DNA from: a virus
Taxonomy: Duplodnaviria; Caudoviricetes
IMG/VR virus record: IMGVR_UViG_3300026037_000015
Span: 1 to 56,395 of that record
Direction: 5' to 3' (one strand)
Length of the DNA: 56,395 bases
Below the pieces are notes generated by a model, which did no database searches, was not told the origin of the DNA, and worked only from the letters and a program-made list of their open reading frames with translations. This document shows positions 2,522 through 56,395 of this stretch, piece after piece. How positions within the stretch are numbered: position 1 is the stretch's first letter; each line of letters starts with the position of its first letter. Position numbers and translations under genes: made by a program.

Positions 2522-4624
2522 ATGGCGAGGGCCAAGACGTACCGGCTGCCTACCCAGCCGCCGCGCGGTGCTGGCGGCGGGCCAATCGCCTTGGCCCTCG
2601 CCACCCGCCGGGTCACCCGCAGGGCCCGAGGCAAGGACCAGCCCGTCGTCCCCGTGTGGCAGCCCGACGGCCGCGCGGTAATGGTCCCCATCTCCCAGCC
2701 GGCCAGGACCGAGGAGGAAGGCGACCAGCTCTACCGGCGCCGTCGTGTCGTCGTCGTCCTGCCCGCCGCGATCATCCTTGCCTGCCTGCGGGTCCTCCTC
2801 GACCTGGTCCCGCCGGGGGACACCCTGACCTACCTCTCCCTGGCCACCGGAGTCTCCGGAGCCATCATCTGGAGGCGTACCTCTCGCGCCGCGCTGACCG
2901 TCCTCGACTGGACCGTCGGCGACTGGTCCGGCCGCGCCGTCGGCCGCCTCGCGATCGGGGTCGCCCCGTCGCAGCCCGCACCGCAGGAGACGGCAGCCCA
3001 GCGGACCCGGAGGGTCCTCACCAGCATCAGGTGGCGCATATGCCTAAGACTCCGGGCCTCCCGCGCTGCGAGCTACGTAGCCCTCGGCTACTGCCTGACC
3101 TACGTCACCGGCCTCGCCGGGCCCTACACCATCGTCATCGCGGCTGCCGTCGCCCTCACCGCCCGCGCCTGGCGCTACCGGATCCGGCCGATGCCCCCCG
3201 AGCCCGAGCCAGCCGAGGAGACCCTCGAAGACATCTGGCACGGCGACCTGGCGCCCGCCATCGGCTGCGCCGGAGCCGTGATGCTCGCTGTCGAACCGCT
3301 CCGGACCGTCGACGGCTGGCGAGCCGACATCGAGCTGATCCGGGCCAAGCAGACCGTGTCGATGCTCAGGGCGGGCGCAGAGAAGATCGCCTCCGCCTAC
3401 GACGTCACCCCGTCCCAGGTCGGGATCGAGCAGCTCGGATCCGCGCGCCGTGCGCGCCTGACCATCGTCCAGAACTCGGTGCTGACCTCGGGCAAGGTCA
3501 CCACGGGGCTGGGGCTCGACCTGGAGACCGGGGTCGCCGATCTGTCCACACTTATCGACGGGTCGAGAGCCGGCTGGCAGTGGTACGACCCGGAATACGG
3601 GACGTACATGGGCTGGGTCTTTGGGTCGACCGGCTCAGGCAAGTCCAAGACCCTCGACGCGCTCCTGTCCTCGATCATGGCCTCCGGGATCGCCGTCCTC
3701 GACCTGGTCGACCTCAAGGGCGGGTCCTCCCTGCCCGAGTGGAAGGCCGTCGCTTACCGGTACGGCACCGACCTGCCGAGCGCGCTCGCCGGGATCGAAC
3801 GGGCGATCGCGGTCCACGAGGCCCGGTCCCGGTGGCTCGACGAGCACATGATGCGCCAGCGCACCCCAGCCCCCGACTGGCCGCTGTACCTGCTCGTGAT
3901 CGAAGAATTCGCCCACCTGCGGGAGATCAGGGGAGCGATCGCCCGGGCGGAGAGGATCGTCACCCAGGGCAGGGCAACCGCGGTCGCCCTGGTCGTCGCG
4001 ACCCAGGCCTCCGACCTCGCCGGAGCGTTCAGCGGATCCAACGTGTTCCGGACCCAGCTCCAGGCCGGGAACGTCCTCGCGCTGCGCTCCGACGCGGGGG
4101 CTGCCCGGACCGGCCTCGGAGGCATGGCCGGCCAGATCGACCTCTCCGTCATCCCCGCCCGGCAGGGCGGCACCGGGTACCTCATCACCCCCTCCAGCCA
4201 GCGTCCGATCCTCGGCCGCGTCGACCACGTCCGGGACACTCAGGCCGTCGTCGACCGGTGCATTGCTGCCGTCCCCGGCCCGCTCATCGACCTGGCCGTC
4301 GCCCGCATCGAGGCCTCCTGGGAGGAACAGGCCAAGCAACAGCAGGCCGCTGGCTCCCTCGCAGACCAGGCCCTTGCCGAGGCCTCCGTCCTCCTCGACC
4401 GGGCCAACACGAACAGCCCCAGGTCCCCGGTCCGGGACAAGGTCCTCGCCTGGCTACGGGAGCACCCCGGGCCCCAGTCGGTCCGGGACATGGTCACCGC
4501 GGGACTCGGCAGCGACAAGGGGATCCGAGAGGCCAGGGACTCCCTCTGCAAGGACGGACTCGTCCAGCTCACACCGTCGGCCGGCCAGGGCTCCTGCCAG
4601 GCCGTCACCCAGGAGGCATCGTGA
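2522..4624 (+). CDS. FtsK/SpoIIIE-family DNA translocase, TraB-like
   Basis: N-terminal TM segments; Walker A GSTGSGKS; DLKGG; Walker B LLVIEEF; QGRATAV...VATQ; C-terminal winged-helix-like segment. Confidence 0.85.
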   Translation: MARAKTYRLPTQPPRGAGGGPIALALATRRVTRRARGKDQPVVPVWQPDGRAVMVPISQPARTEEEGDQLYRRRRVVVVLPAAIILACLRVLLDLVPPGDTLTYLSLATGVSGAIIWRRTSRAALTVLDWTVGDWSGRAVGRLAIGVAPSQPAPQETAAQRTRRVLTSIRWRICLRLRASRAASYVALGYCLTYVTGLAGPYTIVIAAAVALTARAWRYRIRPMPPEPEPAEETLEDIWHGDLAPAIGCAGAVMLAVEPLRTVDGWRADIELIRAKQTVSMLRAGAEKIASAYDVTPSQVGIEQLGSARRARLTIVQNSVLTSGKVTTGLGLDLETGVADLSTLIDGSRAGWQWYDPEYGTYMGWVFGSTGSGKSKTLDALLSSIMASGIAVLDLVDLKGGSSLPEWKAVAYRYGTDLPSALAGIERAIAVHEARSRWLDEHMMRQRTPAPDWPLYLLVIEEFAHLREIRGAIARAERIVTQGRATAVALVVATQASDLAGAFSGSNVFRTQLQAGNVLALRSDAGAARTGLGGMAGQIDLSVIPARQGGTGYLITPSSQRPILGRVDHVRDTQAVVDRCIAAVPGPLIDLAVARIEASWEEQAKQQQAAGSLADQALAEASVLLDRANTNSPRSPVRDKVLAWLREHPGPQSVRDMVTAGLGSDKGIREARDSLCKDGLVQLTPSAGQGSCQAVTQEAS

Positions 4625-5724
4625 CCGACCAGACCCCGCCCTCGACGGGCCCTGCCCCCGTGCCGGCCAAGGCGACCCTCAACCCGAGGGTCACCATCGG
4701 CATGAGGATCGCCGCCGCGTGCATCGCTGCCGTCATCGGAGTCATCGGCGCGGTCGGCTCCTACGAAGGCCTCCGGGCAGGAGTTGCCCCGTACAGCACC
4801 CCATGGTTCGCGATGATGTTCCCGCTCCTCGTCGACCTCCTGATCGTCGTTTCCAGCCTGGAGTTCGTCGCGGCCACCCGAGCCCACAGCCCGGGCCGCC
4901 ACGGGTGGCGCATGATCGCCCACACCGCGATCGCAGGGACGATCGCCCTCAACGCGATCGCCGCACTGCGGGACTACGGCCCGGCTGGCGTCACCTGGCA
5001 CGTCATCGCCCCGACCGTCTGGGCCGTCCTCATCGAGCAGTACGCCCGGAAGTTCCAGGGGGAGTGGAAGGCCGAGCACACGCCGGACGTGATGATCCCC
5101 GCGCGGCTGTGGCTGCGTCACCCCGTGGACTCCGCCCGGCTGTGGCTGCGCGCCGCCGAGCTCGGGGGCGCACACTCGACGATCTCGGCTGACCTCGGTG
5201 TGCAGCGAGCAGCGATCGCCGTCCTGCGCGACTCCCTGCCGATCATCGGCTCGGCCCGGATCCGCAGGCTCCTCATCCGCCAGGTCCGCGCCGGGTCGCT
5301 GTCTCCCCGGGCCGTCCTCGACGCTTGCGGTGTGCTCGACCCCAGCGCCAGCAACGTCCCCCAGGACATCCGCCGCCGTGCCCTGGTCTCCATCCTGCGG
5401 ACCCAGGCCATTCCCGCAGCACCAGCCCCCCGGCCAGTGCTGCCCGCTACGCAGCCTCTCGCTCTTGCACCAGGCTCGGTGCCAGCACCAGCCCGGCCGA
5501 GCCCGTCCCGGCCAGCACCGGCCCGCCTCGAGGTCTCGACCCCGGACCGGGACAGCGTCATCACCTCGCTCCGGCGGGAGATGGGGGAGACCGACACCTG
5601 GAGACCCGACTACGCCCGGCTCATGGCCACCACGGGCAAGAGCCACTCCTGGTGTGAAAAGGCCGTATCCGAGGCCCGTCGTCTCGGTCCGATAGCGCGC
5701 CTCCGTGCCGCTGAATCCTCATAG
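4621..5724 (+). CDS. DUF2637-like membrane protein (Spd-type spread protein)
   Basis: Four TM helices with SYEGL, FPLLVD and IALN motifs typical of actinomycete plasmid/AICE DUF2637 proteins; Pro-rich linker; C-terminal HTH-like end; GTGA coupling to the TraB-like gene. Confidence 0.75.
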   Translation: MTDQTPPSTGPAPVPAKATLNPRVTIGMRIAAACIAAVIGVIGAVGSYEGLRAGVAPYSTPWFAMMFPLLVDLLIVVSSLEFVAATRAHSPGRHGWRMIAHTAIAGTIALNAIAALRDYGPAGVTWHVIAPTVWAVLIEQYARKFQGEWKAEHTPDVMIPARLWLRHPVDSARLWLRAAELGGAHSTISADLGVQRAAIAVLRDSLPIIGSARIRRLLIRQVRAGSLSPRAVLDACGVLDPSASNVPQDIRRRALVSILRTQAIPAAPAPRPVLPATQPLALAPGSVPAPARPSPSRPAPARLEVSTPDRDSVITSLRREMGETDTWRPDYARLMATTGKSHSWCEKAVSEARRLGPIARLRAAESS

Positions 5725-5737
5725 GAAGGCACCACCC

Positions 5738-6031
5738 ATGAATCCCACGTTCGCGCTCATCCTGCTGCTCACCGTCGCCGGACTCTGGCTCCTGGTCCGG
5801 CTCATCGAGACCGGCAACCGCCAGCTCCAGGCCCTGGTCAACCTCAAGGCCGACGAGGAGCCGGAGGAGCCGGAGGGCTGGACCTGGGAGCAGCGGTACG
5901 AGGCCCGCAGGCGCCGGTCGGCTCCGGGCCCGGCCCGGTCCTCGTCCTGGCCGGCAGGGCTGCTCGAGGTCGAGGACGTCAACCAGGGCGAGGCCGTCTC
6001 TGGTGCCGACAACACCAGCGCGGGGGAGTGA
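5738..6031 (+). CDS. small membrane-anchored hypothetical protein
   Basis: AGGAAGG RBS; N-terminal TM. Confidence 0.6.
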   Translation: MNPTFALILLLTVAGLWLLVRLIETGNRQLQALVNLKADEEPEEPEGWTWEQRYEARRRRSAPGPARSSSWPAGLLEVEDVNQGEAVSGADNTSAGE

Positions 6032-6297
6032 CCCCGATGAACATCTCCGAGGCGAAGGACGTCGCCCTGCTCCTGGAGTGGGCCGCCGGGCTGGCCGAGC
6101 CCCCGGTCTCCTGGACCGAGACCGCGGCCGCCGCCGGGCGCCTGGCGCTTCGGGTGCACCGGGCTCTGGCTGCTGGCCCGGACCAGCACGAGGTCTACCA
6201 CGGGGTCTCCCGGGCCACGGTCACCCACGGGACCTGCGCTGACCCGTGGTGCAAGCTCTGCTCCGGGCACCTCGCGGGGAAGAGGATGACCCCGTGA
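6028..6297 (+). CDS. hypothetical protein (C-terminal CxxxxCxxC)
   Basis: Coupled ORF, coding-like codon usage. Confidence 0.6.
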   Translation: MTPMNISEAKDVALLLEWAAGLAEPPVSWTETAAAAGRLALRVHRALAAGPDQHEVYHGVSRATVTHGTCADPWCKLCSGHLAGKRMTP

Positions 6298-6557
6298 TCG
6301 GCTGCGGTTGCGGGCCCCAGCCGCCCTACGTCCAGGTCACCAGGAGGCAGGGCCCGGTGACCTGGGTCGGGCTGGAGCCCGGGGGAGAGCTGGGGGAGCA
6401 GTGGGCCTGCCCCGAATGCGGTCGCCGGTACGTCGTGCGCCGCGCGCCGTGGGCCAGGTCCCCAGCGAGGAGCGGCACCGGCAGCTACCCGCTGCGGGTG
6501 TGGGCCCCGCCCGGCCGGTTCCCGCGATTGCGGGACATCTGGGGGTGGAAGCGGTGA
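6294..6557 (+). CDS. small zinc-ribbon hypothetical protein
   Basis: CGC and CPECG motifs; GTGA overlaps at both ends. Confidence 0.55.
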   Translation: MIGCGCGPQPPYVQVTRRQGPVTWVGLEPGGELGEQWACPECGRRYVVRRAPWARSPARSGTGSYPLRVWAPPGRFPRLRDIWGWKR

Positions 6558-6877
6558 GCTACCAGCGGGCCGTGCGCCACAACGTCACGTGCCCGCGGTG
6601 CGGCCGCCGCGGGTACGTGACGACGGGCCCCTGCGGCACGTGGATTTTCTGTGCTGCGCACGAGGGGATCCACGTGACCTCCCGGGCCCTCGTGAGGTCC
6701 TCCGTGCGTCTGATCATCGCGTGCACGAGCACGGTCAGCGCGTGCACGCACGAGGAGCACGTCGACCGGCGGGACTGGATCGCGACGGCCCGGGAGCTGC
6801 ACCTGGCGGCGCTGGTCGAGACCCGTGCCGCGTTCGGTCTGGGCCCTGATCTGACCCCTCTCGCCAGCGACCGATAA
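6554..6877 (+). CDS. Cys/His-rich hypothetical protein
   Basis: CPRCG motif; the TAA stop lies within the dif-like site. Confidence 0.55.
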   Translation: MSYQRAVRHNVTCPRCGRRGYVTTGPCGTWIFCAAHEGIHVTSRALVRSSVRLIIACTSTVSACTHEEHVDRRDWIATARELHLAALVETRAAFGLGPDLTPLASDR

Positions 6878-6894
6878 TGTGCATTATGTCAAGT
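6867..6894 (+). other. dif: XerCD dif-like recombination site (candidate attP or dimer-resolution site)
   Basis: GCGACCGATAA-TGTGCA-TTATGTCAAGT has 11-6-11 architecture with inner ATAA/TTAT inverted repeat; 19/28 identical to E. coli dif (XerD arm 9/11); AT-rich island in a GC-rich genome. Confidence 0.85.
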
Positions 6895-7169
6895 AACGGA
6901 GTTTTGACCGCTATGGACCGTCTCCCCCGGCCCCGCCGACCGCTCCCTCCAGGTGCCCTCCGCCGCCGTCCTCGGCCCCTGCTGCGCGCGGTCGTCTACA
7001 CGACGGCCGAGCAGCCCCCCCGGCTCTCGGTGAACCGCTACCCGCGACACGACCGGCCCGGCCGCGTGGTGATCGGCATCGCGCTCCGGGTCGGCCACTG
7101 CCGACTGCTGTCCCTCGTATGGCGTCGGCCGTGAGCCGTCCCCCGAACCGCGACCCAGGAGGCACCAGC

Positions 7170-7613
7170 ATGACCTTGCTCCCCGACGAAGCCCGCCGGG
7201 TCCTCGCCGCGATCGACCTGACGGAACGAACCGGCGCGCACCAGTTCGCGCTGGGCTACGGCCACACCCGGGTCGCAGGCAAGCCCATCGGCACCTGGAC
7301 CGCGTCGGCCGTCTACCGGGGAGGGACGATCAGCGCCAGCGCCTACTCCCCGCACGACGCTGCCGAGCGGCTCGCGATCCGGCTACTGACTGGCGCGAAG
7401 TGCGCCGATTGCTCCAGTCTGGTGGCGCTAAGTAGTGACGGCGCGGTGGCCTACCCAGATGCGGAGATGGCAGACGGCACTCTCTGGACCCACGAAGAGC
7501 AGCTCCGAGCAGGGTTCTGTCGCTGGTACCTGGCCAACGGCCGGACCTGGACCCGAGGCTGCGAGGAGGAGCACCCAGATGACGCACACCACTCCCCCAC
7601 TCCCCCGGGGTGA
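7170..7613 (+). CDS. hypothetical protein with CxxC
   Basis: AGGAGG RBS. Confidence 0.7.
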   Translation: MTLLPDEARRVLAAIDLTERTGAHQFALGYGHTRVAGKPIGTWTASAVYRGGTISASAYSPHDAAERLAIRLLTGAKCADCSSLVALSSDGAVAYPDAEMADGTLWTHEEQLRAGFCRWYLANGRTWTRGCEEEHPDDAHHSPTPPG

Positions 7614-7746
7614 CACCGACGCCGTCCGGATCCTCGACGACGTCCAGATCCTCCTGGCCGAGGCCCTCGGCCCGGTACTGCCGGCCGAGACCTTCAACGA
7701 CCTCGCGGACGACCTCACCGGTCTCGTTCTCGCCCACCGGACCTGA
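7579..7746 (+). CDS. small hypothetical protein
   Basis: GAGGAGGAG RBS; coding-like codon usage. Confidence 0.55.
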   Translation: MTHTTPPLPRGDTDAVRILDDVQILLAEALGPVLPAETFNDLADDLTGLVLAHRT

Positions 7747-7749
7747 CCG

Positions 7750-8037
7750 GTGAGCGGCCCCAGCACCGTGATCCTCCTGAGCCTCGCCCTGGTCGTCAGC
7801 GTCGCGATCCTCACCGAACGACGCCGCGGCCGGTGGGCTGCCGCCCAATGGCTCTACCTGCGCCTCGGGTGGCTCTACCCAGGCGGGTTCGTGGCCGGGT
7901 CGACCGGGGAGGGCAGCATCCCCCCGGCAGCCTGGCAGGCCCTCGCCGCCGCCTACGCGGTGCCCTGGGTCGCAGCCTGGGCGCGTCTCGCGTGGCTCAC
8001 CTCACAGGCACCACCGGATACGCGGCACCCCGTATAG
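7750..8037 (+). CDS. small membrane protein
   Basis: Hydrophobic, Trp-rich. Confidence 0.55.
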   Translation: MSGPSTVILLSLALVVSVAILTERRRGRWAAAQWLYLRLGWLYPGGFVAGSTGEGSIPPAAWQALAAAYAVPWVAAWARLAWLTSQAPPDTRHPV

Positions 8038-8077
8038 TCGGCACGACGACACCCCATCCCCTACCCAGGGAGACCCG

Positions 8078-8458
8078 ATGACCCAGCCCACCGAGGCCCG
8101 TACCCCGCAGGTCGAGCTACAGACCTGGCTCAACGAGAACATGATCAGGCACTCGGCCGAGTGCGAAACGGCGATCGGCCGAGACATGTCCCGGATCATC
8201 AACAGCGGAAACCTCGACGTCGACCGGCTCCGGTCCCTGACCGACCGCCTCGACGCCGTCCAGGGCGAGGCAGGGGCCTACGAGCTGGCCCGTGACCACG
8301 TGACCGAGGACCCCGGCGTAGCCCTCGCGGCGGTCCGGCAGCGACTCGTCATGACCGCGATGGGCGTGACCGACTCCTCCTGGGCCAGGTCACGGTGCCT
8401 GGGCTTCCAGGCAGGGGCCCGCCGCGTGATGGAGGTCATCGACTCCCTCTCCTCCTGA
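8078..8458 (+). CDS. hypothetical protein
   Basis: GGGAG RBS; preceded by CCCCGTATAGT, the -10 motif shared with other early promoters. Confidence 0.7.
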   Translation: MTQPTEARTPQVELQTWLNENMIRHSAECETAIGRDMSRIINSGNLDVDRLRSLTDRLDAVQGEAGAYELARDHVTEDPGVALAAVRQRLVMTAMGVTDSSWARSRCLGFQAGARRVMEVIDSLSS

Positions 8459-8550
8459 CCTGCTGCCTGCCCCCAGAACCATCGGGCCCCCGCGCCGATC
8501 CCCTCCGGCCGGGGGCCCGATGCCGTCCCCGCCCGGGGCGAGCATGAGCC

Positions 8551-9105
8551 ATGACCTCCATCACCCACCTCGGCTACCGCGAGGTCGCCCCAGGCGACCT
8601 GGCCGACTTCCCCGGGAACGCCACCATCCACGACGAGGAGGCCCTCGACGCCTCCGTCGGACGGTTCGGCCAGTTCCAGGCCCTGCTCGCCCGAGAGCTA
8701 CCCGACGGGACCCTCCAGCTCCTCGCCGGGCACGGCACCCGCGCTGCCCTGGTCCGTAACGAGGTGACCTCCACCAGGGTCGAGGTCATCCAGGTCGACG
8801 ACGAGACGGCCCTGGGCATCAACCTCGCAGCCAACGGCACCACCCGCCGCCGCGACTACGAGCCAGCGGCGCTCCTCGACCTCCTCGCCCAGGCCCGAGC
8901 TGCCGGAGGCCTCGGAGGCACCGGCTGGGACGACGCCGAACACGATCGGCTCCTGGCCCTGGTCGAGGCCCCCGCGCCTGCCCCGGAGCCGCAGCCCCCG
9001 GCCGAGTTCCCGTCCTACGACGACGAGACCATCGAGACGTCCTTCAAATGCCCGTCCTGCGGCTACCAGTGGTCGGGAAACCCAGGCTCCAGCACCGATG
9101 AGTAG
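8551..9105 (+). CDS. ParB/Sulfiredoxin-like protein with C-terminal zinc ribbon, first gene of the DNA modification operon
   Basis: PGNATIH...SVGRFGQ...LLAGHGT..A ParB-N motifs; C-terminal FKCPSCGYQW. Confidence 0.75.
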   Translation: MTSITHLGYREVAPGDLADFPGNATIHDEEALDASVGRFGQFQALLARELPDGTLQLLAGHGTRAALVRNEVTSTRVEVIQVDDETALGINLAANGTTRRRDYEPAALLDLLAQARAAGGLGGTGWDDAEHDRLLALVEAPAPAPEPQPPAEFPSYDDETIETSFKCPSCGYQWSGNPGSSTDE

Positions 9106-10324
9106 ACCTGCCTACCGGGTCCCGACCATGGTCGAGATCAGGGCCCTGCCCCCGAACGGCCTCCGGGTCATCTCCACGTTCGCGGGCGCCGGAGGATCCA
9201 GCACCGGCTACCGCATGGCCGGCTACCAGGTCATCTGGGCCAACGAGTTCGTCCCGGCTGCCGCAGCCACCTACCGGGCGAACGCCTCCCCCGGCACCAT
9301 CGTCGACACCACCGACATCCGCGAGGTCACCCCCGAGTCGATCCTGGCCGCTACCGGCCTGGCCGTCGGCGACCTGGACATCTTCGACGGCTCCCCGCCC
9401 TGCTCGGGGTTCTCCACCGTCGGGATCAGGGAGGCCGGCTGGGGAGTGACGAAGGCCTACTCGTCCACCCGGCAGCGCGTCGATGACCTGTTCTTCGAAT
9501 ACACCCGGCTCCTGCGCGGGCTCCAACCCCGAGTGTTCGTCGCCGAGAACGTCTCCGGCCTGGTCCGCGGGGTGGCCAAGGGCTACTTCAAACGGATCAT
9601 GGCCGAGATGAAGGCCTGCGGGTACCGCGTCGAGGCACGGCTCCTCGACGCCCAATGGCTGGGGGTGCCCCAGGCCCGGAAGCGGATCATCTTCATCGGT
9701 GTCCGCCGCGACCTTGGCCGGCTACCGGTTCACCCCGGTCCCCTGTCGCACCGGTATGCCGTCCGGGACGTCCTGCCCGCCCTTGAGCTCCAAGGCGGCG
9801 GACCGTGCCCGTTCGGTGAGAGCAGCTACCAGCGGACGGACCGGCCGTCCCCGACGATCGGGTCCTCGCTGACGTTCGGCAACGGCAGGTCTCCCTCTAG
9901 CGTGGTCGTCGAGACCCCGCCGACCTACGTCCATGACACCGGAGGCGAGTTCGGTCAAGGCGACGGCTCGGACCGGCCGTCACCGACGATCGTCGCGACA
10001 CCGGCATCCCTGAACCACTACCGGGTCGCAGCAGCCGACGGCGAGCCCGGACCGGTCTGGCGCGAGCACCTCCCCTACTGCCCGGAGACCGGTAAGGCCC
10101 TGATCCTGCGACCGACCGCGTCGATGAGGTACACCCCGCCGCCCGGGAGGATCATGCGTCGCCTCACGATCCCCGAGCTGCGACTCCTCAGTTCGTTCCC
10201 CGCCGACTTCGCCCTCACCGGCAGCTACGAGGAACGGTGGGAGCGCTGCGGGCGGGCCGTCCCCCCGCTGATGATGCGCGCGATCGCGTCGACCATCGCC
10301 CGGGACGTCCTGTGTGCGGGCTGA
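9098..10324 (+). CDS. DNA cytosine-C5 methyltransferase-family enzyme, probable carboxymethyltransferase
   Basis: Motif I FAGAGG, IV GSPPCSGFS, VI AENV, VIII PQARKR, IX RRLTIPEL; motif X is GRAVPP instead of GNAV. Confidence 0.9.
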   Translation: MSRPAYRVPTMVEIRALPPNGLRVISTFAGAGGSSTGYRMAGYQVIWANEFVPAAAATYRANASPGTIVDTTDIREVTPESILAATGLAVGDLDIFDGSPPCSGFSTVGIREAGWGVTKAYSSTRQRVDDLFFEYTRLLRGLQPRVFVAENVSGLVRGVAKGYFKRIMAEMKACGYRVEARLLDAQWLGVPQARKRIIFIGVRRDLGRLPVHPGPLSHRYAVRDVLPALELQGGGPCPFGESSYQRTDRPSPTIGSSLTFGNGRSPSSVVVETPPTYVHDTGGEFGQGDGSDRPSPTIVATPASLNHYRVAAADGEPGPVWREHLPYCPETGKALILRPTASMRYTPPPGRIMRRLTIPELRLLSSFPADFALTGSYEERWERCGRAVPPLMMRAIASTIARDVLCAG

Positions 10325-11754
10325 TCGGAGGAGCGCTGCCCCTGCCCTCCGTCATCCGGGGCCTCGACGCGATCGCCCACCGCGGGCCCGACGACCAGGG
10401 CGCGGCCGAGTCCGGGGCCTTCGCCCTCGGCCATACCCGCCTCGCCGTCCAGGACGTCACGTCCGCCAGCGCCCAGCCGTGGCCGGCCAGCGACGGCAGC
10501 CTGGTCACGTACAACGGGGAGGCCTGGAGACCGGACGCTCTCCGTGCGCTGCTCCCCGAGCGCACCTGGTCGACGACCGGGGACACCGAGGTCGTCGCCG
10601 AGCTGCTCGCCGCGCACGGCACCGAGGCGCTGCCCCTCCTCGACCGGGCGATGTTCGCCCTCGCCTGGGTCGACCGGGAGGGGCTCCTCCACCTCGCCCG
10701 CGATCGCTACGGCGAGGTCCCCCTCCACGTCGGCCGGCTACCTGGCTCACGCATCGCCTATGCCTCCGAGGTCGCTGCGCTCCTCCAGCTCGGGGCCCAC
10801 CCGGCGACCATCCAGTGGCTCCTCCCTGGACACGTCATGACCGTCCAGCAGGACGGCCGTACGGCGACCGTCTCCAGGTGGGCAGCCCCCGAGGTCCTGA
10901 CCCCGTCCCAGGACGGCCCGCGGGCCGCTGCTGCCGTCGTCCGGCACCACCTCATGGAGGGAGTCACCGACCGCCTCACCGGAGACGTCCCGATCGCTGT
11001 CCTCGTCTCCGGAGGCCTTGACTCTTCCCTGGTCCTCGGGATCATCCGCACGATGCGACCCGACCTCGAGGTCGGCGCCTACACGGCCGTCCACAACCCG
11101 AGGTCCCTCGACCTCGCCCACGCCAGGGCCGTCTGCGGGTCCTGGGGCATCCCCCTGCGTGAAGTCCCCGTACCGGCGCCGACGGCTGCTGACCTGGCTC
11201 GGACGGTCCGCGCCGTCGAACAGCCGCATAAGGCCCAGGTCGAGATCGGCTGGGCCTGTCTGCACCTCGCCCGGGCGATCCGGCGGGACGGGTACAAGGT
11301 GGTGCTCTCCGGTGAGGGCAGCGACGAGCTGTGGGCGTCCTACGGGAGCCCCCGGTCGATCATGGTCCATCACGGGATCAAGACGCAGGGCTGGCACCAG
11401 TACCGGGCCTCCACCTTCACCGGCCAGCACAGGAAGAACTTCGCCAGGACGAACAAGGTGTTCATGAGGCACGGGATCGAGGCCAGGCTCCCGTTCCTCG
11501 ACCCCGGCCTCGTCGGCTACGCCCTGACCCTCCCCGAGGTGACCGTCACCAGAGCTGCCGGAGGCCGTACCCACACGAAAGCGGTTCTCGCCGCAGCGGC
11601 CGCGGGCCTCGTCCCGGAGACCAGCGTGTGGCGGGCCAAGGTCGCCTTCCAGGTCGGGGCAGGCCTCGACCTGGCGGTCAAGCGTGCCGTCCCTGATCCG
11701 CGCAGGCTCTACGCGGCCGAGTTCCGGACTGCCTACGGAGGAGTCAAGCCATGA
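10312..11754 (+). CDS. asparagine synthetase B-like glutamine amidotransferase/ATP-dependent amide ligase
   Basis: GTG start then N-terminal nucleophile C-G-L; HRGPD, HTRL, YNGE, DTEV, ARDRYG, PP-loop SGGLDSS, LSGEGSDEL, EARLPFLD. Confidence 0.9.
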   Translation: MCGLIGGALPLPSVIRGLDAIAHRGPDDQGAAESGAFALGHTRLAVQDVTSASAQPWPASDGSLVTYNGEAWRPDALRALLPERTWSTTGDTEVVAELLAAHGTEALPLLDRAMFALAWVDREGLLHLARDRYGEVPLHVGRLPGSRIAYASEVAALLQLGAHPATIQWLLPGHVMTVQQDGRTATVSRWAAPEVLTPSQDGPRAAAAVVRHHLMEGVTDRLTGDVPIAVLVSGGLDSSLVLGIIRTMRPDLEVGAYTAVHNPRSLDLAHARAVCGSWGIPLREVPVPAPTAADLARTVRAVEQPHKAQVEIGWACLHLARAIRRDGYKVVLSGEGSDELWASYGSPRSIMVHHGIKTQGWHQYRASTFTGQHRKNFARTNKVFMRHGIEARLPFLDPGLVGYALTLPEVTVTRAAGGRTHTKAVLAAAAAGLVPETSVWRAKVAFQVGAGLDLAVKRAVPDPRRLYAAEFRTAYGGVKP

Positions 11755-12476
11755 CGGACATCGAGGACCGGGAGCAGCCCGGAGCGTGGACGTTCGCGCA
11801 GTTCGGGGCGCAGTTCGACAGCCACGTCATCGCCCACCTCCCGGTCTATGAGGACGTGCAGGCGATCGTTGCGGGCGTCTCCTCGTACACGCTGCCGGAC
11901 CGGGGAGTCATCGCCGACCTCGGGGCCAGCACCGGCCGGACGATCGCCCAGCTCGCGGAGCAGCACCCCGAACGACGCCTGGTCGCCCACCTCTACGACG
12001 CCGATCCGTCGATGCTCCAGGAGGCCGAGCGGCGCCTGGTCGACCACGGGAACGTGACCGGCTACCTCCATGCCGGAGACCTCACCGAGGGCGACACGTG
12101 GAGCCACCAGCGGGCCGATCTGACCCTCGCCCTGTGGCTCCTCCAGTTCATCCACCCCCGGCACCGCGTCGAGGTCCTCAAGCGGGCACGGGACCGGGCT
12201 GCCGACAACGGAGTGATCCTCCTCGGGGCGAAGGCCCGGCACCTGGACTCCAGGTGGCAGGAGATCGCAGATGGGGCCCTCGCCGACTACAAGGCCGCCG
12301 CGGGGGTGACCCCGCAGGAGATCGTCGCGAAGGCGCGCTCGCTGCGCGGCGTGCTGATCCCCGATACCGGGGAGTCGCTGGCCGGCCACCTGGTGACGGC
12401 CGGGTGGCACGCCCCGACGGTCATCCACCGCTGGCACGTCTGGACGCTGATCGGCGCATGGGCCTCCCCACGGTAG
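11751..12476 (+). CDS. CmoA-like carboxy-S-adenosylmethionine synthase / class I SAM enzyme
   Basis: WTF...FDSHV..HLP.Y, DLGASTG, LQF and YK..AG.T..EI..K..SL.GV match the CmoA family pattern (WTFD..VA.VF.DMI.RSVPGY, DLGCS.G, TLQF, FK..NGYS..EI.QKR..LENV). Confidence 0.8.
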   Translation: MTDIEDREQPGAWTFAQFGAQFDSHVIAHLPVYEDVQAIVAGVSSYTLPDRGVIADLGASTGRTIAQLAEQHPERRLVAHLYDADPSMLQEAERRLVDHGNVTGYLHAGDLTEGDTWSHQRADLTLALWLLQFIHPRHRVEVLKRARDRAADNGVILLGAKARHLDSRWQEIADGALADYKAAAGVTPQEIVAKARSLRGVLIPDTGESLAGHLVTAGWHAPTVIHRWHVWTLIGAWASPR

Positions 12477-12496
12477 GAGGCTCATGCCTGGGGGGC

Positions 12497-12724
12497 TCAC
12501 CGGGTGGCGAGTGGCTCCCGCCACCGGTAGCAGCCGGTGGTCTGGACGAGCCACCGGTGGAAGGTCACGACCCCGGAGCGGGCTGTTGCCAGCTCCTCCC
12601 GGGTGCCGCCGTAGGCGACGTCGAGGGCCAGCTCGGCAGCGAGGCGCGCTGCCCGGTAGTCCTCGACGAGCTGCTGATGTGCTGGCCAGCACCCCCGGTG
12701 TCGGGGGCTACACCCGGTTGGCAC
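12497..12724 (-). CDS. small hypothetical protein
   Basis: Downstream of and co-oriented with 12731-13051. Confidence 0.55.
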   Translation of the reverse strand: MPTGCSPRHRGCWPAHQQLVEDYRAARLAAELALDVAYGGTREELATARSGVVTFHRWLVQTTGCYRWREPLATR

Positions 12725-12730
12725 GGCAGA

Positions 12731-13051
12731 TCACCATCCCTTCATCTCGCGGTAGGTGTCGAGCGCCGTCGCGGCAGCGACGAATCCCGTGTGGGTGACG
12801 GCAGCCGTAGTGCGCTGGTCGTCGTTGTCCCAGCGCAGGACGAGGGCGATCACGCGACCGGAGCGGGCGCCGATGCGGATCCGGCCGAACCCGCTGTCGG
12901 GGCCGACCCCGCTGAGGACGACGTCGACGGATCCCCGGTAGGCCGGGCGGACCTCGGGGCGAAGGCCTGCCCGCTCGGCCCGCTGGATGAGGCTCCGGGC
13001 TGCGGAGGTCATGGGGGCGGGGCTGCTGCTGGGGGAGGTCGTCGTCGCCAT
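12731..13051 (-). CDS. hypothetical protein, probably leaderless
   Basis: ATG lies 6 nt after a TATAGT -10 box. Confidence 0.7.
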   Translation of the reverse strand: MATTTSPSSSPAPMTSAARSLIQRAERAGLRPEVRPAYRGSVDVVLSGVGPDSGFGRIRIGARSGRVIALVLRWDNDDQRTTAAVTHTGFVAAATALDTYREMKGW

Positions 13052-13086
13052 GGCTCCACTATACGGGCTAGCGCGTTATAGTCCAG
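13052..13086 (-). promoter_or_regulatory. sigma-70-type promoter with operator-like spacer, leaderless transcript
   Basis: Minus strand CTGGAC-TATAACGCGCTAGCCCG-TATAGT-GGAGCC-ATG. Confidence 0.7.
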
Positions 13087-13120
13087 TCCGTAGTGCAGCG
13101 AAGGGTAGTCCGGCATCCGC

Positions 13121-13149
13121 TGGACACTAGACGCACTACCCCGTATATT
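13121..13149 (+). promoter_or_regulatory. sigma-70-type promoter for the DUF932 operon
   Basis: TGGACA-17 nt (ends CCCCG)-TATATT. Confidence 0.7.
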
Positions 13150-13196
13150 CATCGGGGTAAGGCACCGCAGGGCACCACGACAACAGGAGGACCCCC

Positions 13197-14246
13197 GTGT
13201 CCAGAGAATCCGACCGCTGGCTCAACCGCATGACCCTCATCGGCAACACCGACAAGCGCGGCACCGCCTGGCACTACCGGGCCGTCCTCCAGGGCCCCGA
13301 GAGCAACCACTACGCCGGGCCCATCCCCATCGAGGACGTCCGCCGCCGCCTCATCGGCTGGCAGCTCCAGCAGGGAACCATCTCCTCCTGCGTCATCACC
13401 GAGGACGGCGCCGACGTCTACGAGGACCCCAACCGTCTCTCCGTCATCCGCCCGCGCGGCGCGTTCGGCCCCGACGACCAGGGCGAGATCCTCGGCACCT
13501 TCCGCCGCGGGTACCGCATCCACCAGTACGACGAGTGGCTCCTCGGAGGCCTCGCCCAGATCCTCGACCAGTCCGCTGGCGAGCTGGTCATCGAGTCGGC
13601 CGGACTCCTCCGGCGCGGCGCCGTCGCCTGGGTCCAGATCGCCATGCCCGAGACCATGAACGTCGAGGGCGTCGAGTTCCGCACCCACATCACTGCCGCC
13701 ACCTCGGCTGACGGCACCCTCGCCACCGGATTCGTCGCAGGCAACCAGGAGGTCGTCTGCGACAACACCCTCCACGCCGCCTGGGTCGAGCGCGACGCCC
13801 GCAGCATCAAGATCCGCCACACCTCCGGCTCCCTCACCCAGATCCACCGGGTGCGCGACGCACTGGAGCTGGTCTACGCCGAGGCCGACGCCTTCTCGGC
13901 CGAGATCCGGGAGCTGGTCGCGACCACCGTCACCGACCGCCAATGGGCAGCTTTCCTCGACGCGCACACCCCCGTGCCGTCCAAGCCGGGCGCCGGGCGC
14001 ACCGTCGCCGAGAAGCACCGCTCCGAACTCTCCGCGCTCTGGGCAACCGACGAGCGGGTCTCCCCGTGGACCGGCACCGCCTGGGGCGTCCTCCAGGCGG
14101 TCAACACCCACCGGCACCACCTCAGCCGGGTCTCCGGCGGCGACGCCAAGCGCGGTGAGCGCAACATGGCCAACGTCGTCAAGGGCATCACCGCCCGCGA
14201 GGACCTGGCCGCGATCCGGCAGCTCCAGGGCGTCCTCTCGGCCTGA
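13197..14246 (+). CDS. DUF932 / phage-plasmid TIGR03299-like protein
   Basis: AGGAGG RBS; AWH, ESAGLLRRG, TSADGT, VVCDNT and GTAWG..QAV motifs. Confidence 0.85.
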   Translation: MSRESDRWLNRMTLIGNTDKRGTAWHYRAVLQGPESNHYAGPIPIEDVRRRLIGWQLQQGTISSCVITEDGADVYEDPNRLSVIRPRGAFGPDDQGEILGTFRRGYRIHQYDEWLLGGLAQILDQSAGELVIESAGLLRRGAVAWVQIAMPETMNVEGVEFRTHITAATSADGTLATGFVAGNQEVVCDNTLHAAWVERDARSIKIRHTSGSLTQIHRVRDALELVYAEADAFSAEIRELVATTVTDRQWAAFLDAHTPVPSKPGAGRTVAEKHRSELSALWATDERVSPWTGTAWGVLQAVNTHRHHLSRVSGGDAKRGERNMANVVKGITAREDLAAIRQLQGVLSA

Positions 14247-47400: not shown

Positions 47401-47820
47401 TCACGTACGGGGGCTGTCCCGTCTGCGGCGGATCTCGTCCACGATGCGGTAGATCTCCCTCCGACCGCCGGAGACTGCCTCGTCGAGGGCATCATGGTCG
47501 ATCTGGTCGAGGAATCCTGGCCGGAAGTACAGGTAGACGCCCGAGCCGTCGACGGCGAACGGGACGGCGCCCTCGATGCGGGGGGGCTCGGTGGGGTGGG
47601 TGGACCAGTCCCCGGTCTCCGGGTCCTGGTGGAAGGCGACTCGGAGGACTTCACCGAGGCGGGCGATGTCGCTGCTGGAGGGTTGCGTGCTGCCCCGTTC
47701 CCAGTTGCCGATCGTCTTGAGGTAGCGGCCGACTGCGCTGGCGAGGTCCTCCTGCCGGAGGCCGCGCTGCCGTCGCTGCTCGCGGATCAGTTTCCCCAGG
47801 TTGCTGGCCATGGGCGGCAT
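47401..47820 (-). CDS. XRE-family HTH immunity repressor
   Basis: LGKLIREQRRQRGLRQEDLA..VG...TIGNWERG..QP; divergent from the Cro-like gene. Confidence 0.85.
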   Translation of the reverse strand: MPPMASNLGKLIREQRRQRGLRQEDLASAVGRYLKTIGNWERGSTQPSSSDIARLGEVLRVAFHQDPETGDWSTHPTEPPRIEGAVPFAVDGSGVYLYFRPGFLDQIDHDALDEAVSGGRREIYRIVDEIRRRRDSPRT

Positions 47821-51835: not shown

Positions 51836-52279
51836 ATGGCCGAGATCACCGGGGCTCTGACGCCCCCTCCGTGGACTGAGGACGCACGTTGCGCACGATC
51901 CGACCCCGACGCCTGGCACGCCGACATCGGGACAGCAGAGGAGGCCTTCGCCAAGGCCGTCTGCCGGAACTGCCCCGTCCTGGACGAGTGCGCGAGGTGG
52001 GTGATGGCTACGGAGAAGCCGAGGGACCGCTGGGGCATTTTCGGCGGGATGTCGGCTCCCGAGAGGTCCTACCTCGACCGGCACCCCGAGCTGGACTACC
52101 GGGAGGTCTGGGGACGGCCCCAGCTCCCGGCGACGGTAGAGACCGTCGCGGACCTGATCGAGCGGGGCATGGGGTTCGCGGATGTCGTGGCCGAGACGAT
52201 GCTCTGTCGGGCCACGGTCAGCAAGCTGATGGTGCCCGCGCGCTCGCTGCTGGACCGGCGGGCCCGGGCCGCGGCCTGA
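51836..52279 (+). CDS. whiB: WhiB-family transcription factor
   Basis: W...ARCA..DPD.W, AKAVCRNCPVLDEC, WGIFGGMS..ER. Confidence 0.9.
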   Translation: MAEITGALTPPPWTEDARCARSDPDAWHADIGTAEEAFAKAVCRNCPVLDECARWVMATEKPRDRWGIFGGMSAPERSYLDRHPELDYREVWGRPQLPATVETVADLIERGMGFADVVAETMLCRATVSKLMVPARSLLDRRARAAA

Positions 52280-56167: not shown

Positions 56168-56395
56168 ATCCCCTTGTCGACATGATCATTTATCTGGGCG
56201 TCCTGCTCGGTGCTGCCCTCATTGCGGCCGCCCTCATCCTCCGTCAGGTCCGCGCGGCCGCCGCCGCCAGCGCCGTCCCCACAGCCCCTCCCTCACCGCC
56301 TGAGGGCAGCCACATCCTGGTCCGGCCCGGCCAGCACGTCTGCGCCCTCCGTGAGGGCTACGACAGCCCTCATCAGGAGGGCGAGCCCGCCTGGA
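56164..56395 (+). CDS. 5' part of the membrane-anchored protein continuing to position 432
   Basis: GGAGG RBS, ATGA coupling to the xis-like gene, N-terminal TM. Confidence 0.7.
   Translation, partial: MNPLVDMIIYLGVLLGAALIAAALILRQVRAAAAASAVPTAPPSPPEGSHILVRPGQHVCALREGYDSPHQEGEPAW

Follow-up and report, generated by a model that had tools for sequence, protein, structure and literature searches.

A predicted glutamine-type CmoA/CmoX/CmoY module for cytosine hypermodification in the genome of a probable actinobacterial phage

The four-gene locus

We describe here a string of four genes, at positions 8551-12476 of IMG/VR virus record IMGVR_UViG_3300026037_000015, that is predicted to hypermodify cytosine in phage DNA; the window that was analyzed is the entire record (56,395 bases). 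All four genes lie on the + strand and overlap by 8, 13 and 4 nt. The first (8551-9105, + strand, 184 aa) encodes a ParB-like protein with a ParB/Srx-type N-terminal domain and a conserved C-terminal tail (residues ~147-184, ...PAEFPSYDDETIETSFKCPSCGYQWSG..., encoded at 8989-9105 on the + strand), the latter a predicted docking element for the next gene product. This is a predicted DNA cytosine C5-carboxymethyltransferase of the CmoX type (9098-10324, + strand, 408 aa), a member of the C5-methyltransferase (MTase) family. The third gene (10312-11754, + strand, 480 aa, GTG start) encodes an AsnB-like protein with GATase_6/7 and Asn_synthase domains, predicted to be a glutamine-type CmoY that amidates 5-carboxymethylcytosine (5cxmC), and the fourth (11751-12476, + strand, 241 aa) encodes a CmoA-like protein, predicted to be a synthase of carboxy-S-adenosylmethionine (carboxy-SAM or Cx-SAM) from a subclade marked by Trp129 and Ala160. 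A first-pass annotation of this DNA had described four overlapping genes here, and the open reading frames (ORFs), together with their Pfam, NCBIfam and PHROGs matches, bear it out.

The 13-nt overlap depends on where the AsnB-like gene begins. Its open frame starts at 10237, and a GTG at 10312 followed by TGC gives the N-terminus M-C-G-L-I-G-G; this GTG is most likely the true start. Among related IMG/VR loci (described below), 18 of 21 AsnB-like proteins have the same (M/V)C N-terminus and the other three are two contig-end cuts and one frameshifted copy.

The methyltransferase and its CmoX signature

The MTase matches PF00145 (E 2e-48). Among solved structures it is closest to SpCmoX from Synechococcus phage S-B43 (8YF3, E 3e-62), with M.HaeIII next (3.3e-22) and ordinary C5-MTases thus some forty orders of magnitude behind. 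Its SPPC motif (residues 99-102, with the catalytic Cys102) aligns to S95-C98 of SpCmoX, and Arg386 in motif X (ERCGRAVPP) aligns to SpCmoX Arg350 (ERVGRMVPP), at the position where HhaI has Asn304. Further motifs are ENV at 150-152 and QxRxR at 192-196. An alignment of the window protein with its counterparts from phages TurkishDelight, S-B43 and Mcat8 and with 18 IMG/VR homologues has SPPC, ENV, QxRxR and the motif X Arg in every sequence (22/22).

In SpCmoX, Arg350 contacts the carboxymethyl group of Cx-SAM, the wild-type enzyme uses Cx-SAM only, its Arg abolishing the use of S-adenosylmethionine (SAM), and the combination of SPPC and Arg350 served as the search criterion for CmoX (Yang et al., Nat Commun 2025, PMC12783734). 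That study collected 5,615 CmoX and 2,251 ligase sequences. By its motifs, the window MTase is thus identified as a CmoX-type carboxymethyltransferase; an ordinary Dcm-type enzyme was rejected as a candidate, given Arg386 and the match to 8YF3. The first-pass annotation had noted that C5-MTases with a basic residue in motif X can transfer carboxymethyl to cytosine; in the window MTase this residue is Arg386. In the engineered enzyme M.MpeI N374K, too, the Asn of motif X has given way to a basic residue, which permits the use of carboxy-SAM (PMC12783734); however, M.MpeI N374K is a point mutant with CG specificity, whereas the window MTase is a natural relative of SpCmoX.

Conservation of the module in related loci

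The CmoA-like gene lies 1.4 kb downstream of the MTase gene within the same overlapping string, and a search for the MTase-AsnB-CmoA triad in other genomes, as the first-pass annotation had proposed, found it repeatedly. Searching with the AsnB-like protein identified 21 IMG/VR loci (42-52% identity, GC content 0.56-0.72), two of which (L014 and L015) are near-identical and count as one independent case. A CmoX-like gene is present in 18 of these 21 loci (the misses being two at contig ends and one frameshifted copy), and a CmoA-like gene (E<=1e-5) in 17. Among 50,697 GenBank phage records, only that of Streptomyces phage TurkishDelight holds a full-length relative of the amidotransferase; TurkishDelight is also the only GenBank phage matched by blastn with the operon (32% covered at 68% identity), so that no close isolate was found there. 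The four-gene set is not a chance arrangement, because the same order recurs in TurkishDelight and because CmoX and CmoA are kept in the related IMG/VR loci.

The enzymes might also have a substrate other than phage DNA, such as host or phage RNA, free nucleotides or a small molecule, with the ParB-like protein and the MTase forming an ordinary 5-methylcytosine (5mC) system beside two auxiliary metabolic genes of unrelated function: the native role of CmoA is in tRNA modification, the PHROGs label of the family is "tRNA methyltransferase," and AsnB homologues act on many small molecules (beta-lactam synthetase and TsnB9, for example). We consider this very unlikely. SpCmoX and SpCmoY work on duplex DNA both in vitro and in E. 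coli (PMC12783734), and no DNA C5-MTase motif is missing from the window MTase, which also has the CmoX Arg that abolishes SAM use in SpCmoX; further, the four genes overlap, the module genes occur together across GC contents of 0.56-0.73, and the module contains no homologue of CmoB, the partner of CmoA in E. coli.

Several loci depart from this arrangement. In L114 and L123 (IMG/VR, GC 0.72), CmoX is followed directly by CmoA without an AsnB-like ligase; these would be 5cxmC-only modules. In L007 (IMGVR_UViG_3300029267_001426, 4978-7401), the CmoX and AsnB-like genes share one open frame without an intervening stop: either a fusion, in which the N-terminal catalytic Cys would lie buried without processing, or a read-through with an internal ATG start. 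In L027 (IMGVR_UViG_3300012201_000001, 6001-7352), the AsnB-like gene is broken up across three frames, with no CmoX or CmoA within 6 kb, and is either a decayed copy or an assembly error.

The AsnB-type amidotransferase

The AsnB-like protein combines GATase_6/7 and Asn_synthase domains with an SGGLDSS PP-loop. Among solved structures, the closest to it is E. coli asparagine synthetase B (AS-B, 1CT9), matched at E 4.3e-34 by the single sequence and at 1.1e-75 with the family profile (A3, an alignment of 18 sequences). The top fold match of its structural model (predicted local distance difference test, pLDDT, 94.1) is again 1CT9, with both domains superposed (template modeling score, TM, 0.86). 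It is ~70 residues shorter than AS-B.

Residue roles in AS-B (the glutamine site and the contacts to beta-aspartyl-AMP) were taken from published work (PMC4659947). The glutamine site is intact: AS-B Cys1, Arg49, Asn74, Gly75, Glu76 and Asp98 correspond to C2, R43, N68, G69, E70 and D91, all invariant (18/18) in A3. The PP-loop S233-GGxDS-238 is likewise invariant (GGLDS in the window), as are S333, G334, E339, Y344, R379 and K443, the equivalents of AS-B Ser346, Gly347, Glu352, Tyr357, Arg387 and Lys449. Two of the nine beta-aspartyl-AMP contacts are changed: Lys376 is Thr (variable in the family) and Asp384 is Asn376 (family-invariant); the other seven, Leu232 included, are kept or conservatively replaced. 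In addition, a family-invariant K307-AQVEIGW-314 stands in place of the AS-B segment DVTTIRAST. To judge from these residues, the enzyme is equipped to hydrolyze glutamine and to adenylate a carboxylate, with an acceptor pocket that appears not to be of the asparagine-synthetase type. Its resemblance to 1CT9 thus extends to the two-domain fold, the glutaminase site, the PP-loop and the conserved synthetase residues, but the window gene, unlike that of 1CT9, adjoins CmoX and CmoA in a phage. Asparagine synthetase B proper was rejected as an identity on the two changed substrate contacts and on scores below the family cut-offs (given below). The intact class II glutamine amidotransferase of the first-pass annotation, with its N-terminal Cys and PP-loop, is well founded in the invariant sites of A3 and the GTG start.

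Scoring of 8000 candidates placed 747 proteins in the AsnB-like family at E<=1e-30. The best 120 relatives are 387-511 residues long and 44-68% identical to the window protein; 112 of them start with MC or VC, the PP-loop is found in all 120, and KAQ[VIA]EIGW in 76. When bacterial genomes (185,579 species, one genome each) were scanned with the family profile, the best 80 of 555 matching stretches were at most 35% identical and are therefore ordinary AsnB homologues. Viral and metagenomic relatives reach 42-68% identity, and phages may be where most of the family is found.

The synthetase domain also matches SpCmoY, the AsnB-type ligase of phage S-B43 (26% identity over 184 residues, E 3e-12), which ligates glycine to 5cxmC in DNA (PMC12783734). 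Yang et al. drew ligase clusters at roughly 30% identity and noted clusters with other predicted amines; the second-largest, with the exemplar A0A7T0Q3R0, has a glutamine-hydrolyzing domain, and glutamine-derived ammonia was suggested as its substrate (PMC12783734). An exact-sequence look-up showed that UniRef100_A0A7T0Q3R0 is gp124 of TurkishDelight. The window protein is 45.7% identical to gp124 over 99% of its length, well above the ~30% threshold of the cluster, and by this identity and its adjacency to CmoX and CmoA we assign it to the glutamine-type CmoY cluster. SpCmoY lacks a glutaminase domain and the window enzyme has an intact N-terminal nucleophile (Ntn) glutaminase, so that ammonia is the expected nucleophile.

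The ParB-like protein and its predicted docking on CmoX

The ParB-like protein matches four ParB-like PHROGs, led by phrog_723 ("ParB-like partition protein," E 1.8e-29) and phrog_620 (1.2e-18). It matches no Pfam family at E<=0.01, and thus not PF02195; its homologue in Moraxella phage Mcat8 does match PF02195 (1.2e-6). ParBc proteins occur on many CmoX contigs, and their role is called unknown by Yang et al. (PMC12783734). Among the 18 IMG/VR loci with CmoX, 16 have a ParB-like homologue directly upstream of it.

The C-terminal tail follows the consensus APEEFxxFDExIETxHxCPxCGYEWSG, with F153, C167, P168 and C170 invariant in the alignment of 15 sequences (A4). Sixteen of the 19 ParB-like ORFs listed carry this tail, among them one from TurkishDelight and one from the distant Mcat8; the three ORFs that lack it are not beside CmoX (the second paralogues of TurkishDelight and L018, and gp1 of Gordonia phage Evaa). 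A complex prediction for CmoX and the ParB-like protein, using alignments made in this analysis, scored 0.73 vs. 0.51 for the best control; of solved complexes, 58 of 80 attain the mark set for this score, and of mismatched pairs, 2 of 110. Three runs share at least 80% of contacts, the partner has a pLDDT of at least 74, and the predicted interface joins ParB residues 147-176, which is to say the conserved tail, to CmoX residues 156-187, 197 and 212-219. The modeling lends support to a possible docking of the ParB-like tail on CmoX, by a margin that is only just reached.

The CmoA-like protein

The best NCBIfam match of the CmoA-like protein is TIGR00740 (CmoA, E 2.8e-16). The single sequence matches 4GEK (E. 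coli CmoA) at E 3.6e-9, and a family profile built from 23 CmoA-like relatives (alignment A2) matches three CmoA/YecO structures (4GEK/4IWN and 1IM8) over their full length at E 2.4e-45 to 3.3e-42; the match to 4GEK covers positions 10-239 of 242, and the first methyltransferase other than CmoA follows at 1.4e-18. The AlphaFold model (pLDDT 92.3) has 4GEK as its top Foldseek match (TM 0.85, root-mean-square deviation 2.2 A), in keeping with the CmoA-type class I methyltransferase fold with lid helices; the CmoA structures reach TM 0.84-0.86, and actinomycete CysG/BelI methyltransferases come next (TM 0.76-0.80). Of the residues that Byrne et al. (2013; PMC3663124) listed as SAM contacts in E. 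coli CmoA, Tyr39, Asp62, Gly64, Ser66, Asp89 and Asp117 are kept as Y33, D56, G58, S60, D83 and D110. The protein is also related to SpCmoA of phage S-B43 (24% identity, E 2e-21), which produces Cx-SAM at ten times the rate of E. coli CmoA (PMC12783734).

Profile, fold and SAM-contact residues thus agree with the CmoA-like SAM enzyme of the first-pass annotation. The protein shares its full-length profile match, fold and SAM-binding residues with E. coli CmoA and H. influenzae YecO (1IM8), but is only ~19% identical to E. coli CmoA, from which it differs at Arg199 (Ala195 in the window), Glu164 (Ala160) and Asn132 (Leu). It is most likely a phage CmoA-like homologue that works like CmoA, and not an equivalog of bacterial CmoA, because its scores fall below the NCBIfam equivalog cut-offs (see below).

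Two further loci carry a CmoA-like gene in other company. Gordonia phage Evaa (L005, OP434461; 1-3952) encodes a CmoA-like protein (gp5) that is 41% identical to the window protein, and a search through all 61 kb of its genome for a CmoX-like C5-MTase gave nothing (0 matches at E<=0.01). Nearby, gp1 is ParB-like without the CPxC tail, and gp2, a 511-aa ParB-N fusion annotated as a methyltransferase, has no Pfam methyltransferase match and no significant match among solved structures. Evaa gp2 could be a carboxy-SAM user of another class, a class for which Yang et al. say that they found no candidates (PMC12783734). L110 resembles Evaa in that its CmoA-like gene lies more than 6 kb from any CmoX or AsnB-like partner.

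Proposed pathway

Combined, these enzymes suggest the following route. The CmoA-like enzyme would convert SAM and prephenate into carboxy-SAM. CmoX would then attack cytosine C6 in duplex DNA through Cys102 and move the carboxymethyl group to C5, with Arg386 holding the carboxylate of carboxy-SAM. Next, the PP-loop site of the AsnB-type enzyme would adenylate the 5-carboxymethyl group, while its N-terminal Cys frees ammonia from glutamine, to be delivered through an interdomain tunnel; the product would be 5-carbamoylmethylcytosine (dC+57). The ParB-like protein would serve as an accessory DNA-binding subunit and may dock on CmoX by its conserved C-terminal tail. Gene content, catalytic residues, family membership and synteny are what we observe, and from them we infer each chemical step, the use of DNA by the amidotransferase and the biological role, which is likely to be the shielding of phage DNA from host nucleases.

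That a glutamine-type CmoA/CmoX/CmoY module, with a ParB-like accessory, makes 5cxmC and then 5-carbamoylmethylcytosine in the phage DNA is the reading that we favor and regard as probable. It is also the pathway that the first-pass annotation had put forward (C to 5-carboxymethyl-C to 5-carbamoylmethyl-C), and the membership tests (CmoX signature, CmoA family, intact amidotransferase) point in the same direction. A second, QueC-like step from amide to nitrile was considered and rejected, as no evidence supports it.

A number of observations weigh against this pathway. Oligonucleotide statistics gave no pointer to a CmoX target in the window: the GC dinucleotide has an observed/expected ratio of 0.84, and CTAG and TGCA are the only tetranucleotides depleted. 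The predicted CmoX/ParB-like complex exceeds its required margin by only 0.02, and the control in which the ParB-like protein was kept and CmoX swapped for an unrelated protein scored 0.51, so that the tail may be generically sticky. The amidotransferase falls below both asparagine synthase cut-offs (230.4 vs. 267.1 for TIGR01536 and 211.2 vs. 499 for PRK09431) and is therefore not tied to a known substrate. The only CmoY that has been assayed (SpCmoY) has no glutaminase domain and uses glycine, and a soluble enzyme of the glutamine-type cluster was not obtained by Yang et al. (PMC12783734); because the tested enzyme was insoluble, the product of that cluster remains a prediction.

These points on the amidotransferase are the ones that would favor a different final base. 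Cytosine might be carboxymethylated without ending as a primary amide: another amine could be ligated directly, with the glutaminase domain regulatory or otherwise employed, or the pathway could largely stop at 5cxmC. Besides the glycine used by the one assayed CmoY and the clusters with other predicted amines (PMC12783734), the invariant K307-AQVEIGW-314, together with the changes at AS-B Lys376 and Asp384, indicates a remodeled acceptor site whose specificity is unreadable from sequence, and loci with CmoX and CmoA but no ligase do exist (L114 and L123). On the other hand, the invariance of the N-terminal Cys and of the other glutaminase-site residues, with the MC or VC start in most of the best relatives, would be hard to explain were glutamine hydrolysis unused, and SpCmoY, at 271 aa, does without the domain altogether. 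A final base other than the amide is, on balance, rather unlikely, and we retain 5-carbamoylmethylcytosine as the predicted product.

The remaining points against the pathway concern carboxy-SAM. The CmoA-like protein scores below the NCBIfam cut-offs (59.9 bits vs. 193.3 for TIGR00740 and 33.6 vs. 285 for PRK15451), and the position of E. coli Arg199, a residue that forms a salt bridge with the carboxylate of the cofactor, is occupied by Ala195 (...AKARSLRGV...), in a register that is firm because the invariant Lys194 and Leu198 flank it. The window protein does have an Arg four residues further on, at position 199, in the place of E. coli Glu203. In our alignment SpCmoA has the same pattern: its Glu aligns with Arg199, and an Arg follows four residues on (ELRDM vs. 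SLRGV). Phage CmoA homologues show either Arg/Glu as in E. coli or x/Arg at the two positions, with a few having neither. SpCmoA is active without Arg at the aligned position; Arg199 therefore defines bacterial CmoA and not activity, and, four residues being one helical turn, the later Arg could reach the same carboxylate. The first-pass annotation had raised the substitution as a caveat: its alignment of Ala to this position holds, while the worry that it attached to it is resolved, since active SpCmoA likewise has no Arg there.

A second substitution had not been noted in the first-pass annotation. E. coli Glu164 is Glu or Asp across the whole CmoA family (Byrne et al., 2013; PMC3663124), and the window protein has Ala160 there. 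Within A2, position 160 is Ala, Thr or Val, always with Trp129, in all 16 members of the subclade to which the window protein belongs, whereas the other seven have an acidic residue there (Glu or Asp) and Phe or Leu at 129; the latter combination is also found in 19 of 19 sequences of alignment A1, SpCmoA among them. This coupling suggests a remodeled pocket in one CmoA subclade. SpCmoA, the only phage CmoA that has been assayed, has Glu at the equivalent of position 160, and activity of the Trp129/Ala160 subclade is therefore an extrapolation.

The enzyme might, then, make another SAM derivative or simply methylate, in which case the group placed on cytosine and later amidated would not be carboxymethyl. 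The loss of Glu164, the sub-threshold NCBIfam scores and the nearly equal fold matches to CysG/BelI methyltransferases could all be read in this way. However, the partner MTase retains the carboxylate-binding Arg386 and the downstream enzyme is of a carboxylate-activating kind; the remainder of the CmoA signature, like the Arg at window position 199, is preserved across the subclade (both among the invariants of alignment A6); and the published mechanism of CmoA invokes no enzyme base, the pocket beside the SAM methyl being hydrophobic (PMC10491745). The setting of the gene also recurs within the subclade: the related-loci search with the single CmoA-like protein gave no relatives, that with the subclade alignment did, and L108, a second subclade member, has the same CmoX-AsnB-CmoA order, so that both contexts observed (the window and L108) agree. 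A product other than carboxy-SAM thus seems unlikely to us. On the strength of this synteny and of a mechanism with a hydrophobic pocket and no enzyme base, we think that the Trp129/Ala160 subclade keeps its predicted carboxy-SAM synthase activity, and we regard this as the weakest link of the chain.

Taken jointly, the more specific proposition is that 5-carbamoylmethylcytosine, a base not yet demonstrated in DNA, would be made by a glutamine-dependent CmoY, that the ParB-like protein would be a subunit of the carboxymethyltransferase, tethered by its FxxFD...CPxCGYxWSG tail, and that the Trp129/Ala160 subclade would be a remodeled but active carboxy-SAM synthase. We hold this combination tentatively, at somewhat short of an even chance.

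Comparison with published systems

CmoA paired with CmoX, an AsnB-type ligase (CmoY) and an association with ParB have all been described (Yang et al., 2025; PMC12783734). The first-pass annotation had likewise mentioned reports of phage CmoA/carboxymethyltransferase pairs. Its guess that glutamine-dependent amidation in an actinophage might be undescribed did not hold: this was already predicted, with an actinophage protein (A0A7T0Q3R0) as the exemplar (PMC12783734). Within a limited literature collection, we found no paper on carbamoylmethylcytosine in DNA. New here are the changed AsnB substrate contacts, the conserved ParB CPxC tail predicted to dock on CmoX, and the CmoA subclade in which Glu164 is lost and Phe is replaced by Trp.

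In phage S-B43, the same three enzyme families are clustered: its CmoX has SPPC and Arg350, its CmoA has the later Arg, and its CmoY has a homologous PP-loop synthetase domain. The order there is CmoA-CmoY-CmoX with no adjacent ParB, whereas in the window it is ParB-CmoX-CmoY-CmoA; SpCmoY is a glycine-ligating protein of 271 aa without a glutaminase, whereas the window enzyme has 480 aa and an intact Ntn glutaminase; and SpCmoA has Glu and Phe where the window protein has Ala160 and Trp129. Identities to the S-B43 proteins are 24% for CmoA, 26% for the CmoY synthetase domain and 44% for CmoX (over the N-terminal 41%).

The module of TurkishDelight (gp122-125, NC_073473), likewise a high-GC actinophage, is closer: ParB-like protein, MTase, glutamine amidotransferase and methyltransferase follow one another in the same order, with identities of 47.4% (CmoX), 45.7% (CmoY) and 44.1% (CmoA), and the ParB tail is present there too. 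TurkishDelight differs in its genome of 93.6 kb, with the module at the right end, in a second ParB paralogue, and in a CmoA of the Glu/Phe type.

The carboxymethylcytosine pathway is a recently discovered disguise of phage DNA, and it provides a carboxylate handle that is of interest for DNA labeling. The window adds to it a divergent orthologue of the glutamine-type ligase exemplar, set in a compact four-gene cassette of what is probably a complete phage genome. If the amide base were confirmed, it would be a new natural DNA base, made by a kind of system that is already in print.

Genomic context

An exact direct terminal repeat of 127 bases (1-127 and 56269-56395) makes it probable that the record represents a complete genome assembled as a circle; the completeness estimate accompanying the record is 78%, despite this repeat. 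The GC content of the window is 66-73%, and a tRNA scan of the window found no tRNA genes. The genome codes for a large terminase, a portal, a major head protein, tail proteins, a single-strand annealing protein and a DnaB-like helicase. Relatives of the portal protein are distant (at most 34% identity) and every one is found in phages of Actinobacteria; an actinobacterial host is therefore likely, and the phage is probably an actinobacterial siphophage.

The operon is followed by two short minus-strand genes in convergent orientation (12497-13051; 75 and 106 aa), of which the first matches phrog_7933, a group with no assigned function. Beyond them, a divergent promoter-like pair at 13058-13149 stands ahead of a DUF932 gene (13197-14246); the unit therefore ends at 12476. 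A promoter and terminator scan of 7600-13300 found no sites at the operon ends and one promoter-like match inside the operon, at 11018; the sigma-70 consensus that it used is of little use at 71% GC.

Elsewhere in the genome, a 700-aa protein at 2522-4624 (+ strand) weakly matches an FtsK/SpoIIIE-like PHROG (E 1.9e-9) but belongs to no Pfam family, and an HTH_31/HTH_3 protein at 47401-47820 (- strand) may be a repressor. A WhiB-family regulator (PF02467, E 8e-15) is encoded at 51836-52279 (+ strand) and fits an actinobacterial host.

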